From Candidatus Saccharimonadota bacterium (lineage in GTDB: Bacteria > Patescibacteriota > Saccharimonadia > CAILAD01 > BJGX01), in the NCBI GenBank assembly GCA_016191105.1, contig JACPPH010000004.1:65230-129229 (forward strand): DNA of 64,000 bases. Reading direction: 5' to 3'. The notes under the pieces were generated by a model that was given only the letters and a program-made list of their open reading frames with translations, was not told the origin of the DNA and did not search any database. Positions 42,929 through 46,820 of this stretch are shown in pieces; the first letter of the stretch is position 1, and each line of letters begins with the position of its first letter. The position numbers were made by a program, and so were the translations under genes.

Positions 42929-44014
42929 TTAACTATGCCTAATTACTACAATATCACCATCTTGCATGGTGTAGTCCTTGCCTTCTAAACGGACTTTGCC
43001 AGATTCCTTGGCGCCGGCCCAACCACGGCCAGCCACAAAATCTTCATAGGTTACAACCTCGGCTTTAATAAAGTTTTTCTCGAAATCACCATGAATTACT
43101 CCAGCCGCCTGTGGCGCCGTGTAGCCAGCTCGCATAACCCAACCACGGGTTTCTTTGGGCCCAGTGGTAAAGAATGTTTCGAAGCCTAGAGTTTGGTAGC
43201 CGAGACGAATTAGGCTTTCTAGGCCCGACTCGGTTTGACCTAAACCGGCGAGCAGTTCTTTGGCTTCAATTTCTGATAAATCTTGCAGTTCAGCTTCAAC
43301 CTTGGCACACAAAAACACTGCAGGGCAGGGGCTAACAATTGCTTCCAGCTCTTTTTTGAGTTGCTCGTTACCAAGTTGTGTTTCATCTAAATTAAAGACG
43401 ATTATGAATGGCTTGGCGGTTAAAAGCTGCATGTCGTGTAAATCATGCATTTCTTCAGCAGACAAGAATGATCCGGCGAGCTTAGCTTCATCTAACCCGG
43501 CCTTAGTTTTTTCGAGTAAGGCCTTGAGTGGTGCCAGCTTTGGGTCGGCTTTGAGCTCGGACTTTATTCGCTCTAGGCGACTTTCGACAGTAGTCAAATC
43601 TGCCAAAATTAACTCAGCATTTATAGTTTCGATGTCAGCCTTAGGGTCAGTCTTATTTTCGACATGAGTTATTAGAGGGTCTTCAAAAGCTCTCACAACC
43701 TGCACAATGGCGTTGCATTCTCGTATATGGCTTAAGAATTTGTTGCCCAGGCCTTCACCCCGGCTGGCGCCACTAACAATGCCAGCGATGTCTACAAACG
43801 TACAGCTAGCAGGAATAGTTTGGGCTGAGCTTGAAATCTCGGCTAGCTTTTGCAAACGCGTATCTGGCACATTAACCACGCCTACGTTCGGCTCAATAGT
43901 GGCAAAAGGGTAGTTCGCGGCCAATACTTGGTTTTTGGTGAGGGCATTAAAGAGAGTGGATTTACCCACATTGGGCAGGCCCACAATGCCAATCGAAAGA
44001 CTCATAAGTTGCAA
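42929..44014 (-). CDS. ychF: Ribosome-binding ATPase YchF
   Basis: G1 GLPNVGKST, TGS-like C-terminus, 361 aa. Confidence 0.9.
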   Translation of the reverse strand: MQLMSLSIGIVGLPNVGKSTLFNALTKNQVLAANYPFATIEPNVGVVNVPDTRLQKLAEISSSAQTIPASCTFVDIAGIVSGASRGEGLGNKFLSHIRECNAIVQVVRAFEDPLITHVENKTDPKADIETINAELILADLTTVESRLERIKSELKADPKLAPLKALLEKTKAGLDEAKLAGSFLSAEEMHDLHDMQLLTAKPFIIVFNLDETQLGNEQLKKELEAIVSPCPAVFLCAKVEAELQDLSEIEAKELLAGLGQTESGLESLIRLGYQTLGFETFFTTGPKETRGWVMRAGYTAPQAAGVIHGDFEKNFIKAEVVTYEDFVAGRGWAGAKESGKVRLEGKDYTMQDGDIVVIRHS

Positions 44015-44190
44015 TTATAACAAATTAACAGGCATAATTCCAGATACAGCAGTCGACAAATAGCATACAAATATGTTATTATCTATTTCTCTTTGTTCCT
44101 ACTAGATCGGGGGATGCGTATGAAGAAGACGCTATTGTTAGTGGGTGCTTCAGTTGTGATCATGACTGGTGGTGTGGCAGCCGCCAGTTC
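43985..44190 (+). repeat. Copy A of a ~210-bp duplicated module (ychF 5' end, promoter, RBS, signal-peptide codons)
   Basis: Nearly identical to 45955-46170. Confidence 0.8.
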
Positions 44191-44374
44191 AAGTCTCGAT
44201 GCAAATACTGATATCGCAAAAGTCTTTCTCTTTAAAATTCTACCAAAAAAGATAGTGGATGATGACGATCGATGGCCAGAGTTGAAAGAAGCAGTGGATG
44301 CTTTAAGTCCATTAATAATTGGTTTGTATGATGTTTATATGAATGAGTTTGACAAATATCATTTGGCAACTTAA
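44120..44374 (+). CDS. Small secreted protein (signal peptide MKKTLLLVGASVVIMTGGVAAASS) with an AT-rich payload
   Basis: Start placed at the MKKT ATG after GGGGGATGCGT. Shares the first 27 residues with the 46101-46712 protein. Confidence 0.4.
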   Translation: MKKTLLLVGASVVIMTGGVAAASSSLDANTDIAKVFLFKILPKKIVDDDDRWPELKEAVDALSPLIIGLYDVYMNEFDKYHLAT

Positions 44375-44645
44375 AGAAAGTCTAATAATGAATCCTCTAG
44401 ATAACTTAGAAGAAAAACGACATGATCAGTTTAATATACAAACAAATCAGCTACTTGGTCAGATTGAAGAGTACCTTGTTAATGAAGGTGTAGAGCAGTA
44501 TGAACCTCGCTATACTAGTATCCGCAAAAAACCAAATGCAAAGATGCTAGGAATATGCCTAACGAGCAAGTGTTGGAATTAATAAACCAGTTGCGAGAAT
44601 TGGCTTGCTTTTTATACGATCGTTACCAAGCTAGTAAGCTAAAAA

Positions 44646-45692
44646 CTAGGTAGTCTCGGTTCGATCTACCATAAACTTTACTGCTTCGTTCATATTGATC
44701 GGAACTATCTCGATATCGGGATGCTTGGCGTGAAAAACTCTAAATATCTCATCAGAAAAAGCTTGTCCAACGGTTGGGACATGCTTAAAGTCTAAGATTA
44801 TACGCCTAAACTTATTTAGACCAGCTAGCAGACGCCTTGCTTGCGAACGAGAAACATATATTGTCCGCATAGTGTAAAGCTTAATTTTGATTTCTGTTTG
44901 GTCGAAAGCTGGCTCCTCAGGGTCTACTTGGTAATTAGAGAATACACTACTTAAGTGTAACTTTGTTTTTACATTTATATTAAACATAACTTCAGTTCCT
45001 CGGAGATCTGGCTTAGATTCCTCCACAAAAACATCCTGAATTCTATTATCTATTCTTAATTTGTAACCAAAACTTTCCAGAGTAAATAAATCTCCAATCT
45101 TTGATGTAAAGAATATGCCTTCTCCAGAATGAGCCTTGGGAGCAGTAGTTGTTTTTCCTTTCAATAAGTCTTGTATCGCCTCAATCTCAGACTTTAAGTT
45201 TCTTTTCTTCATTACATTGCGAAAAACACCTATACCAAAGTCACGTACAACAAACGTAAGAATATCTTTTTCCTGGCTAATTTCAATCTCAATATACTTA
45301 GTTTTCGAGTGCTCAATAGCATTATTTAGCATTTCTGAAAATGCATAAGCAAAAATGCTCTGTACATTTTCTAGGAGATTATTTAAGAATGGTTTTTCTT
45401 TTTTAATCCCATCTAGTACTTCGTATTCTTCCAGCTCTTTATTCACCAGTCTTTTTTTAATTCGTTTGCCCAATGCATCGGCATACTGAGGAAGCGCATA
45501 GACCGACCACCTGCCACTTCCTTCTCTTACTAGAGTACCGTCTTTAACCATGCTATTCACGACTGTACTTACATAAGATCTCGCATAGGGTTTTTGTGTA
45601 TGTTCGCGCAACGCTTTAATGACATCAACTGTCTTAAATTGCTTCTTCTCCCTGGCTATTTTTAAAATGGTTTCTTTAATCATAATGCTCAT
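44646..45692 (-). CDS. wHTH, GHKL-type ATPase (HATPase_c), STAS-like three-domain protein
   Basis: N-box EMLNNAIEHS, G1 VRDFGIGV, G2-like HSGEGIFF, C-terminal STAS/DUF4325-like region. Located in an AT-rich island. Confidence 0.65.
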   Translation of the reverse strand: MSIMIKETILKIAREKKQFKTVDVIKALREHTQKPYARSYVSTVVNSMVKDGTLVREGSGRWSVYALPQYADALGKRIKKRLVNKELEEYEVLDGIKKEKPFLNNLLENVQSIFAYAFSEMLNNAIEHSKTKYIEIEISQEKDILTFVVRDFGIGVFRNVMKKRNLKSEIEAIQDLLKGKTTTAPKAHSGEGIFFTSKIGDLFTLESFGYKLRIDNRIQDVFVEESKPDLRGTEVMFNINVKTKLHLSSVFSNYQVDPEEPAFDQTEIKIKLYTMRTIYVSRSQARRLLAGLNKFRRIILDFKHVPTVGQAFSDEIFRVFHAKHPDIEIVPINMNEAVKFMVDRTETT

Positions 45693-45719
45693 CTTAATTT
45701 ATATGTTAGGTACTATATC

Positions 45720-45835
45720 ACTCTATGTCAGGCTGTATGTCAAGTACTTTATAATTCTATGTTATATTATCTGTTAAACACTAGTTTTATGGCTATGTTA
45801 GTAAGTAAAAGTGCTATGTAAGATTCTATGTCAAG
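45720..45835. repeat. Array of six CTATGT(C/T)A direct repeats upstream of the GHKL-ATPase gene
   Basis: Copies at 45723, 45734 (GTATGT), 45757, 45792, 45813 and 45826. Confidence 0.6.
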
Positions 45836-45954
45836 TTTTAGTTAGATAAATGACTATATCAATTAAAGGAGTATTTTTTAATAAATTCGTTGGAATATCC
45901 ACGCTTACCTTGATCGGGGAGTGGCATCTTGAATGTCAGCTTGAATGGTATGGT

Positions 45955-46170
45955 TACAGCCTGACTATGCCAATCGAAAGACTCATAAGTTGCAATTATA
46001 ACAAATTAACAGGCATAATTCCAGATACAGCAGTTGACAGATAGCATACAAATATGTTATTATCTATTTCTCTTTGTTCCTACTAGATCGGGGGATGCGT
46101 ATGAAGAAGACGCTATTGTTAGTGGGTGCTGCAGCTGTGATCATGACTGGTGGTGTGGCAGCCGCCAGTT
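45955..46170 (+). repeat. Copy B of the duplicated promoter/signal-peptide module
   Basis: See 43985-44190. Confidence 0.8.
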
Positions 46171-46712
46171 CGCAGGTTCCATACCCGCAGCCGCCAGACT
46201 TCCCAACGCCGCTCGGCTGCTACGACACCACCCAAGGGCCCGATGGGCCTCAAGTGGGGTCTACCTGGGTGGCAACCATCACCACATCGCCAGCTCAACC
46301 GCCTTTCGATACCCACATCACCGTCGTGGCGGGCCAGGGGTACTGGCTGATGCAGGTCAGGGGCGGTTGGTTCAACCCGGATCAGACGGCTGGTGGCTTC
46401 GTCTGGAACAACCCGGATGGCTTCAACAACACCACGTACGAAACCAACGGCTATGGTGCTGGTTTCGGGGTGGTGGCTGTGGCTTGTCCATGGCCGTGCC
46501 TGGGGGCGCCACCATTGCCCACCACCAGCACGTTGCCAGAGCCGTACTGCGCGGCTCCGCCAACCACGCACCTGAGCTTGCCGTCGGCATCGGTCAGTCT
46601 GGCCACTACCAGCACGACCACCACCACAGTGAGCTTAGCCAGCACCGAATCATCCACCACAGCTCAGCCGGCCACGCAGGCCGTGGTGGCAACGCCACGC
46701 TTTACCGGCTGA
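46101..46712 (+). CDS. Chimeric secreted protein: low-GC signal peptide fused at ~46170 to a high-GC Pro/Thr/Gly-rich payload
   Basis: The composition switch coincides exactly with the end of the duplicated module. A perfect terminator hairpin lies at 46725-46770. Confidence 0.5.
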   Translation: MKKTLLLVGAAAVIMTGGVAAASSQVPYPQPPDFPTPLGCYDTTQGPDGPQVGSTWVATITTSPAQPPFDTHITVVAGQGYWLMQVRGGWFNPDQTAGGFVWNNPDGFNNTTYETNGYGAGFGVVAVACPWPCLGAPPLPTTSTLPEPYCAAPPTTHLSLPSASVSLATTSTTTTTVSLASTESSTTAQPATQAVVATPRFTG

Positions 46713-46820
46713 AGCACCATATTGCTCCACGGGAAGGGGGTTTGCCCCTTCCCGTGGAGCCGTTTTGTTTATTGACTTGTTATCTTCAGCCGATCGCCTA
46801 TAATAAAAAGCGTAACTATT

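Follow-up and report, generated by a model that had tools for sequence, protein, structure and literature searches.

A single-gene cassette with a phased, operator-like site array, probably self-repressed, in a Saccharimonadota genome

An AT-rich island at positions 44191 to 45956 of a 64,000-nucleotide (nt) stretch of DNA from a Candidatus Saccharimonadota bacterium (GenBank assembly GCA_016191105.1, contig JACPPH010000004.1, positions 65,230 to 129,229 of the forward strand; hereafter the window) is probably, on the reading that we favour with moderate confidence, a horizontally acquired, moron-like cassette of the Candidate Phyla Radiation (CPR), consisting of one gene together with its own control region and self-repressed through an array of short direct repeats. 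The gene (44646-45692, minus strand) encodes a protein in which an N-terminal winged helix is followed by a GHKL ATPase and a STAS-like domain. A sequence-only reading of the same DNA had already picked out the island, the gene and the repeats; the analysis reported here adds that a phased array of sites embedded in the promoter is a property of the whole protein family, and that the array and the gene form a discrete mobile cassette with long flanking repeats.

The array occupies positions 45701-45833 upstream of the gene and comprises eight same-strand (minus) sites of the form T[GAT]ACATAG, one of them degenerate (TAACAGAT), which together constitute a probable operator. In the orientation of the gene the 5' bases of the sites fall at 45833, 45821, 45800, 45776 (the degenerate site), 45764, 45742, 45730 and 45708, with successive spacings of 12, 21, 24, 12, 22, 12 and 22 nt, a phased arrangement that alternates between about 12 and about 22 nt. 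Six evenly spaced CTATGT(C/T)A repeats had been described earlier; the repeats are real, but there are eight sites, their spacing alternates, and only four match the strict form CTATGTYA exactly (45723-45833). Seven copies of the relaxed form TATGT[CTA]A lie within 45693-45850, where its frequency in the rest of the window would predict about 0.025 (Poisson P about 1e-15). Over the other 3 kb of island sequence, on both strands, there is a single further copy, and the proposed look for CTATGT arrays elsewhere turned up no second cluster within the 64-kb window. A consensus scan places a sigma-70-like promoter in the last two sites (45703-45731, minus strand; CTGACA, 17 nt, TAACAT), and a perfect TTGACA lies inside the site at 45742. 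Between the window and locus L002, which carries a 96%-identical copy of the gene product, the array has about 93% identity, compared with 62% for synonymous sites.

Arrays of this kind are kept across the family. When the most repeated 8-mer was sought in the 200 nt upstream of 79 homologue loci, with 236 segments from the same loci as controls, three or more same-strand sites (3-10) at canonical spacing were present at 69 of the 79 loci and in five of the 236 control segments, a result that favours the operator alternative offered for the repeats in the sequence-only reading. Across the family the spacings peak sharply at 11-12 nt, with 97 cases, and at 21-22 nt, with 81; many loci have sites near -52, -41, -19 and -8 from the ATG, and at most loci the array ends no more than about 45 nt from the ATG and overlaps the promoter hexamers. 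The pooled family consensus is aGTT[G/T]ACAATta. About 70% of the sites that precede the 21/22-nt gap contain TTGACA and about 78% of those that follow it contain TTTACAAT, which yields TACAAT at a spacer of 17-18 nt. A 75%-identical homologue with other neighbour genes (L001) has many copies of TAACATAG upstream, and several homologues of 33-36% identity on viral contigs have TTGACAAT-like sites spaced by 12 and 21-22 nt.

While most loci carry the motif AGTT[G/T]ACAAT and the clade of the window carries ACATAG, further variants are found at L005 (CCTTACAAG), L011 (TAACACTA) and L057 (GTTTACGG). A single variant is common to all copies within a locus, and the variants differ among clades; such concerted change of all copies per locus would be expected from a locus-specific binding protein but not from sigma hexamers alone. 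The putative recognition helix likewise differs in variant-motif loci, with, for example, ARSYVST instead of SRQY. Both features by which a winged-helix autoregulator is recognised, the fold itself and promoter-overlapping repeats that are kept among homologues, are found in this family, the fold being a model prediction. Overall, the array is probably an autoregulatory operator rather than an iteron.

The open reading frame (ORF) of the gene spans 348 amino acids (aa), and its probable true start is the second ATG, at 45683 (345 aa), where the homologues begin. The N-terminal winged helix-turn-helix (45468-45692, minus strand; aa 1-75) consists of three helices and a beta hairpin in the AlphaFold2 model, at a predicted local distance difference test score (pLDDT) of 81-94, and has weak matches to Pfam Penicillinase_R (E 5e-4) and, over aa 4-105, to the AbiEi N-terminus in PADLOC (E 8e-5); its putative recognition helix is aa 38-50 (ARSYVSTVVNSMV). 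The GHKL (Bergerat-fold) ATPase follows (44928-45428, minus strand; aa ~89-255), with matches over aa 115-203 to HATPase_c_2 (29.2 bits, cut-off 27.4, E 1e-6) and HATPase_c (26.6 bits, cut-off 26.4, E 8.5e-6), and with the N-box E120xxxN124AxxH128, the G1 motif D151xGxG155 and the lid/G2 segment KGKTTT...HSGEG192. EMLNNAIEHS and DFGIG are present in the protein and invariant in the family, and E120, N124, H128, D151, G153, G155, G190 and G192 are invariant in 25 aligned homologues. Since no ATP-binding residue has been lost and conservation within the protein is highest in the lid, a role for ATP binding or turnover in its function is almost certain, as judged from these conserved residues.

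The C-terminal STAS-like domain (44649-44900, minus strand; aa 265-348) corresponds to DUF4325 (PF14213, 50 bits against a cut-off of 23, E 2.5e-13, aa 284-339), which is present in all close homologues, and SRSQARR and VPxxGQAFxDE are invariant in it among the same 25. The full AlphaFold2 model (pLDDT 81.9) comprises the winged helix (aa 1-75), the alpha/beta ATPase (~89-255) with a disordered lid, and a beta-alpha-beta-alpha-beta-alpha domain (265-348). A sequence search of the PDB with the protein gave nothing useful. Foldseek against the PDB placed SpoIIAB (1til_E) at the top, with a target-normalised template-modelling (TM) score of 0.73, and also listed the RsbV/RsbW complex 6m36, the sigma-F/anti-sigma complex 8jzt, GyrB and DesK; the C-terminal domain matched RsbS (6jhk_B) with probability 1.0 over 86 columns. 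The domain order proposed from the sequence, a winged helix, a histidine-kinase-type ATPase and a STAS-like domain, is thus one on which Pfam, AlphaFold2 and Foldseek agree, weak as the winged-helix sequence matches are, and the suggested kinship with partner-switching or anti-sigma-like regulators is in line with SpoIIAB and RsbS as the nearest solved folds. No other ORF of the island has family support.

The protein family is large, uniform and uncharacterised. One search returned more than 7000 homologues, typically about 60% identical, and a profile search gave at least 853 clusters at 50% identity (E<=1e-30), nearly all full-length proteins of 335-358 aa. The gene is present in at least 574 species-level genomes, and of the 80 listed most are labelled Patescibacteria/CPR; for some metagenome-assembled genomes (MAGs) the taxon label, such as 'Gammaproteobacteria', probably reflects an error of binning or labelling, and these labels were not relied on. 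The exact window protein has no record in the public assemblies searched. Against the L002 copy, the ratio of nonsynonymous to synonymous substitution rates (dN/dS) is 0.033 at a dS of 0.52, with synonymous sites 62% identical, which indicates a functional, constrained gene. In the literature searched, three papers mention DUF4325, each only incidentally, and none mentions PF14213.

Among known systems, the closest likeness in fold is to the SpoIIAB/SpoIIAA and RsbW/RsbV pairs, with which the protein has in common the GHKL fold, a STAS match (to RsbS) and intact ExxxNAxxH, DxGxG and GxG motifs. Unlike these pairs, it fuses the kinase-like, STAS-like and DNA-binding parts in one chain, and the family has no linked sigma factor, phosphatase or separate antagonist gene at 81 loci. 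The genes for SpoIIAB and RsbW are linked to those of the cognate sigma factor and of a STAS antagonist encoded separately, and the missing linkage here argues that the gene does not belong to a classical partner-switching operon. The D-S-S-G phospho-serine motif that SpoIIAA and RsbV carry at the N-terminus of helix 2 is also missing from the family, while the fold match to RsbS holds. A GHKL kinase and a STAS antagonist do occur in one polypeptide in Rv1364c of Mycobacterium tuberculosis, where the antagonist domain is autophosphorylated (PMC7693655). Rv1364c, however, has PAS and PP2C domains, interacts with SigF and has no DNA-binding domain, whereas the window protein has a winged helix and an operator array but no phosphatase. 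With regard to DNA binding, same-strand repeats about one helical turn apart imply head-to-tail binding on one DNA face in winged helices of the OmpR/PhoB type. The 11-12-nt spacing of the family's same-strand sites resembles this arrangement, but the window protein has no receiver domain, and control through the GHKL and STAS-like parts would take the place of aspartate phosphorylation. Moreover, OmpR and PhoB are activators, whereas the sites of the family overlap the promoter hexamers, which suggests repression.

Several lines of evidence suggest that the array and the ORF move as a unit of about 1.1 kb. Clustering of the ORFs within about 4 kb at the 81 loci revealed no conserved neighbour; the 142 immediate neighbours are mostly housekeeping genes (DNA polymerases, enolase, ClpP, RuvB, ABC transporters), and the 25 families that they match most often include no sigma or STAS family. 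Three pairs of loci from different assemblies (L061/L062, L075/L079 and L034/L041) have 78-84% nucleotide identity within the cassette only, from about -50 to -60 from the ATG to ~1-35 nt past the stop codon, and their flanks are unrelated even by tblastx. There are, further, 48 distant homologues (32-42% identical; one domain-only match) on viral contigs of IMG/VR, two of which (L165, L179) stand beside ORFs that resemble phage structural genes, as judged by eye from translations with no profile search. As in phage morons, a self-contained promoter and ORF lie between unrelated genes, composition deviates and homologues occur on viral contigs; unlike morons, most copies of the family lie in CPR chromosomes between housekeeping genes, and no copy comes from a cultured phage. 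From these comparisons of sequence we infer a horizontally moving, moron-like cassette.

Two side observations concern the borders of the cassette. Contigs that carry P0013 (L220-L226), from five different sequencing runs, all start with one sequence, 263 nt before the gene; four of them are only 1.26-1.44 kb long, which is about the cassette alone. Such ends would be consistent with a repeat at the borders of the cassette or with presence/absence polymorphism there. In L220 a tRNA-like 3' end lies upstream of the gene.

In the window, the contrast in composition that had been noticed earlier is evident from the guanine-plus-cytosine (GC) profile, with 0.32-0.38 over 44000-45999, about 0.45 on the left side and 0.55-0.64 over 46000-46799. 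The island lies between the two copies of a direct repeat, in agreement with its earlier placement between two copies of a duplicated secreted-protein module. The copies are 215 nt long and 96% identical by repeat search (205-208 nt and 98% by blastn). Copy A (43976-44190) contains the real 5' end of ychF (minus strand), the intergenic promoter region between ychF and the secreted-protein gene, and a duplicated signal-peptide start that is now the head of a chimeric 93-aa ORF. Copy B (45957-46171) contains a dead 20-29-nt fragment of the ychF 5' end (~45957-45985) and the duplicate of the promoter region, and it is here that the GC-rich secreted-protein gene has its real start.

Loci of ychF in related genomes carry no family gene: it is missing from the five closest that were retrieved (L084-L088, YchF 64-68% identical) and from all 80 examined (0/80). 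Four of these five keep ssb-rpsR-efp beside ychF; in the two loci read closely, 44-73 nt separate ychF from one facing ORF of 877-882 aa, and three of the five have pilM at 2.7-2.8 kb from ychF, a distance that is 5.8 kb in the window. L002 matches window positions 44608-46007 at 88.7%, including the dead 20-nt ychF fragment and the junction between this fragment and the island, while its outer flanks differ from those of the window. Contigs from SRR12113392 are 100% identical to the window and end inside both repeat copies, as expected with a 215-nt repeat; exact lookups of YchF and of its 170-aa neighbour returned only window-identical contigs broken inside the repeat, and no allele with an empty site. 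Taken together, the flanking 215-nt repeat, the ychF loci that have no family gene and the cassette-only similarity between genomes agree with the earlier suggestion that the island is an insertion. In a Paceibacterota MAG (L053) the cassette again directly precedes ychF in the same orientation, as in the window, with ychF at L053 about 40 nt past the stop codon of the family gene; this may be coincidence or target preference.

Long flanking repeats recur in the family. A direct repeat within 400 nt upstream and 300 nt downstream flanks 11 of 71 family genes and none of 102 other ORFs, and widening the search windows brings this to about 25 of 80 loci, with repeats of 21-215 nt and 83-100% identity; at L039 a perfect 28-nt repeat resumes right after the stop codon. 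The repeats are ordinary host sequence (gene ends, promoters, terminators) and differ from locus to locus: a terminator-like hairpin at L075 (by eye), a duplicated gene 3' end at L055, and the promoter region with gene starts in the window. Their nature as ordinary host sequence also ruled out a reading as integron attC sites.

Two loci are instructive as to how such repeats may arise. At L067 (5060-6353) an insertion of about 1.0 kb with a single NYN-domain gene lies between the copies of a 134-nt direct repeat of 92-93% identity, and the syntenic L071 (5057-5236) has one copy of this repeat with no insertion and is thus a true empty site for it. At L055 (3740-6580) the 3' end of an rfbB-like neighbour gene (dTDP-glucose dehydratase-like; identity unconfirmed) is present three times, and the copies separate the family cassette, a Fic-like cassette (HPFSDGNGR motif) and the real gene end. 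The dead copy differs from the real gene end by 20 mismatches with no gaps, 16 of them at third codon positions; it was therefore once part of a functional orthologue and is not the fill-in of a staggered cut. On this sequence pattern we favour integration anchored by homology to the conserved neighbour gene, by a single crossover with donor DNA bearing both the cassette and a fragment of that gene. A recombinase that targets gene ends, itself unseen, would fit as well, and a staggered cut by the cassette's own protein fits poorly. As the duplication keeps both neighbour genes intact, this may be the reason such events survive in gene-dense genomes.

How the cassette might work can be outlined from these features, and we infer each of binding to the sites, repression, gating by ATP or the STAS-like domain, and mode of insertion. 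The winged helix would bind the phased same-strand sites as head-to-tail units, with sites 11-12 nt apart taking a pair of units and the pairs recurring every 33-34 nt, or three helical turns, on the same DNA face. Since the sites overlap the -35-like and -10-like elements, the bound protein would repress its own gene. The SpoIIAB-like ATPase and the fused STAS-like domain could form an internal partner-switching-like module, with oligomerisation and DNA binding under the control of bound ATP or of a phosphorylated STAS-like domain; the parallels with SpoIIAB-SpoIIAA and Rv1364c make the STAS-like domain the probable intramolecular partner of the ATPase. The module may also engage a host or phage partner; beyond control of its own gene, the protein might sequester a factor of host or phage or bind elsewhere in the genome. 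In the window the cassette would have entered between ychF and the secreted-protein gene, where the 215-nt repeat of host sequence leaves both genes and their promoters intact.

Several observations weigh against this reading. The proposed link between protein and sites comes from sequence and model; the winged helix is backed only by weak sequence matches and the AlphaFold2 model, and across the variant loci no simple code relating recognition helix to motif was found. An autoregulator that acts only on itself has no obvious benefit, and the 64-kb window contains no other array on which the protein could act. The STAS-like domain lacks the DSSG phospho-acceptor, its equivalent segment being VPT[IV]GQAF, and an hhalign comparison of the family with SpoIIAA (an approximate query) left the domain unaligned; both make phospho-control speculative, and T307, within VPT[IV]GQAF, is only a positional candidate from the secondary structure of the model. 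As to the insertion, the nearest available relatives for an empty-site comparison, from a metagenome scan, are only 64-68% identical in YchF and do not represent a true pre-insertion allele. Moreover, the ychF'/island junction is common to L002 and the cassettes have diverged by 11%, yet the repeat copies of the window are 96-98% identical, so that gene conversion or later recombination is needed.

An extension of the self-repressed cassette, which we regard as possible though unlikely, would be a defence moron, with a single gene serving against phages or for exclusion. The protein would stay on its own promoter in the repressed state, and on infection its GHKL/STAS module would hit a phage or host target, for example by sequestering a sigma-like factor as SpoIIAB does. 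The sporadic distribution and horizontal movement of the gene would suit such a role, as would the 48 homologues on viral contigs, with L165 and L179 beside structural-looking ORFs, and some loci adjoin Fic, NYN, SocA_Panacea or AAA_15/21 genes. The winged helix resembles the N-terminus of AbiEi, with which a likely autoregulatory role is also common, but the family has neither the AbiEi C-terminal domain nor the AbiEii nucleotidyltransferase partner of AbiE. This similarity is the only match in PADLOC-DB v2, which has no model for the ATPase/STAS part; about six of the 142 neighbours are of conflict type (three Fic, a few restriction or helicase proteins), with no sign of defence-island enrichment among them, and neither 50,697 cultured phage records nor the plasmids of PLSDB gave a tblastn match. 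The link to defence-associated ATPases that the domain combination had first called to mind is accordingly not borne out. In a CPR2 bacterium (P0101; L212-L219) the gene stands among SocA_Panacea, AAA_15/AAA_21 ATPase and RhuM genes, a conflict-type setting that differs from most loci.

A vertically inherited, conventional regulator, with AT-richness and a repeat that stem from local duplication unrelated to mobility, is improbable. It would account for the strong purifying selection, for the presence of the gene in at least 574 species-level genomes and for the syntenic position kept in L067 and L071. It is difficult to reconcile with cassette-only similarity between genomes whose flanks are unrelated, with the absence of the gene from 80 of 80 related ychF loci, with a composition unlike the surroundings, and with flanking repeats that are about tenfold enriched over other genes.

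At the other extreme, there is a slim chance that the array and ORF are a minimal (~1.1 kb) selfish element that passes between CPR lineages and the viruses of these, either self-integrating or a one-protein addiction or exclusion device; it would then be a mobile unit of a new type that does without a classical recombinase. For self-mobilisation in particular, in which the protein would bind the array as a transposon end and drive insertion with long duplications of variable length, one can point to the minimal conserved unit of array and ORF alone, to flanking repeats of 21-215 nt that are specific to the family gene, and to a weak excess of same-strand sites within 100 nt past the stop codon (11 of 69 loci against about two estimated from background). 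There is also a precedent, in that insertions of IS1549 and IS1634 have long direct repeats of variable length, 8-514 bp (PMC2266710), much as those of the family extend over tens to hundreds of base pairs. The cassette, however, has no DDE transposase or terminal inverted repeats, and the L055 duplicate, being orthologue-derived (16/20 mismatches at third positions), points to homology-based or gene-end-targeted integration. Neither Pfam nor Foldseek indicates a nuclease, DDE, HUH or recombinase domain in the protein; across the loci no terminal inverted repeats, conserved right end or common feature past the stop codon were seen; and unrelated genes are flanked by long repeats too (NYN at L067, with the empty L071, and Fic at L055). 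An insertion sequence or transposon is recognised by a transposase or recombinase together with defined terminal repeats, and the family has neither, although flanking direct repeats are present. Self-mobilisation is highly improbable. Extremely improbable is the suggestion that the repeats are iterons, or the centromere of an integrated replicon or partition system: phased direct repeats at multiples of about 11 nt do recall iterons and parC of plasmid R1, but this reading, raised for iterons in the sequence-only account, fails because no Rep, ParA or ParM gene is present in the island or at 81 loci and the sites sit on the gene's own promoter hexamers (within about 45 nt of the ATG at most loci), and PLSDB holds no plasmid match.

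The favoured reading, a self-repressed mobile cassette, would be of interest on several counts. In CPR bacteria, or Patescibacteria, genomes are very small, recognisable regulators are few and genetics is almost absent, and this family comes with a testable cis-element, namely AGTT[G/T]ACAAT or its clade variants at 11-12/21-22-nt spacing over the -35 and -10 elements. The protein would be the first partner-switching-like GHKL/STAS pair that is tethered to DNA within a single polypeptide. The cassette also offers a clean case of the movement of single genes between CPR genomes, and the orthologue-derived long repeat, in one case, may point to a homology-anchored way for these bacteria to gain genes.

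Other features of the island and its surroundings are of a minor nature. A leader of about 120 nt (45834-45956, minus strand) that separates the array from the ychF' fragment is for the most part conserved with respect to L002, above the 62% of synonymous sites in an alignment read by eye; it has no Rfam match and no conserved ORF, and an Rfam scan and a tRNA scan of the whole island gave nothing. A small convergent gene (44343-44651, plus strand) appears decayed, with a 79-aa ORF (44343-44582) and a frameshifted 33-codon tail (44553-44651), MPNEQVLELINQLRELACFLYDRYQASKLKTR, that matches by eye, unscored, the C-terminus of an intact 53-aa ORF in L002 (1685-1846, minus strand; ending in ...LELVCNLQELANFLFDRYQVSKIKTK); the gene belongs to no Pfam family. 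The neighbouring secreted-protein gene (46074-46760, 212 aa) has a GC content of 0.62-0.64 against about 0.44 for the genome and is followed by a terminator with a perfect 16-bp stem (46724-46760). It is missing from L002, and tblastn against the ychF loci of relatives gave no match; it is probably a second, independent foreign insertion in the same intergenic spot. Finally, three further pairs of direct repeats in the window, at 18455-18835/22579-22962 (390 nt, 73%), 19791-19850/20336-20395 (60 nt, 95%) and 53376-53429/54600-54653 (54 nt, 83%), may be marks of other insertions or of duplicated genes.

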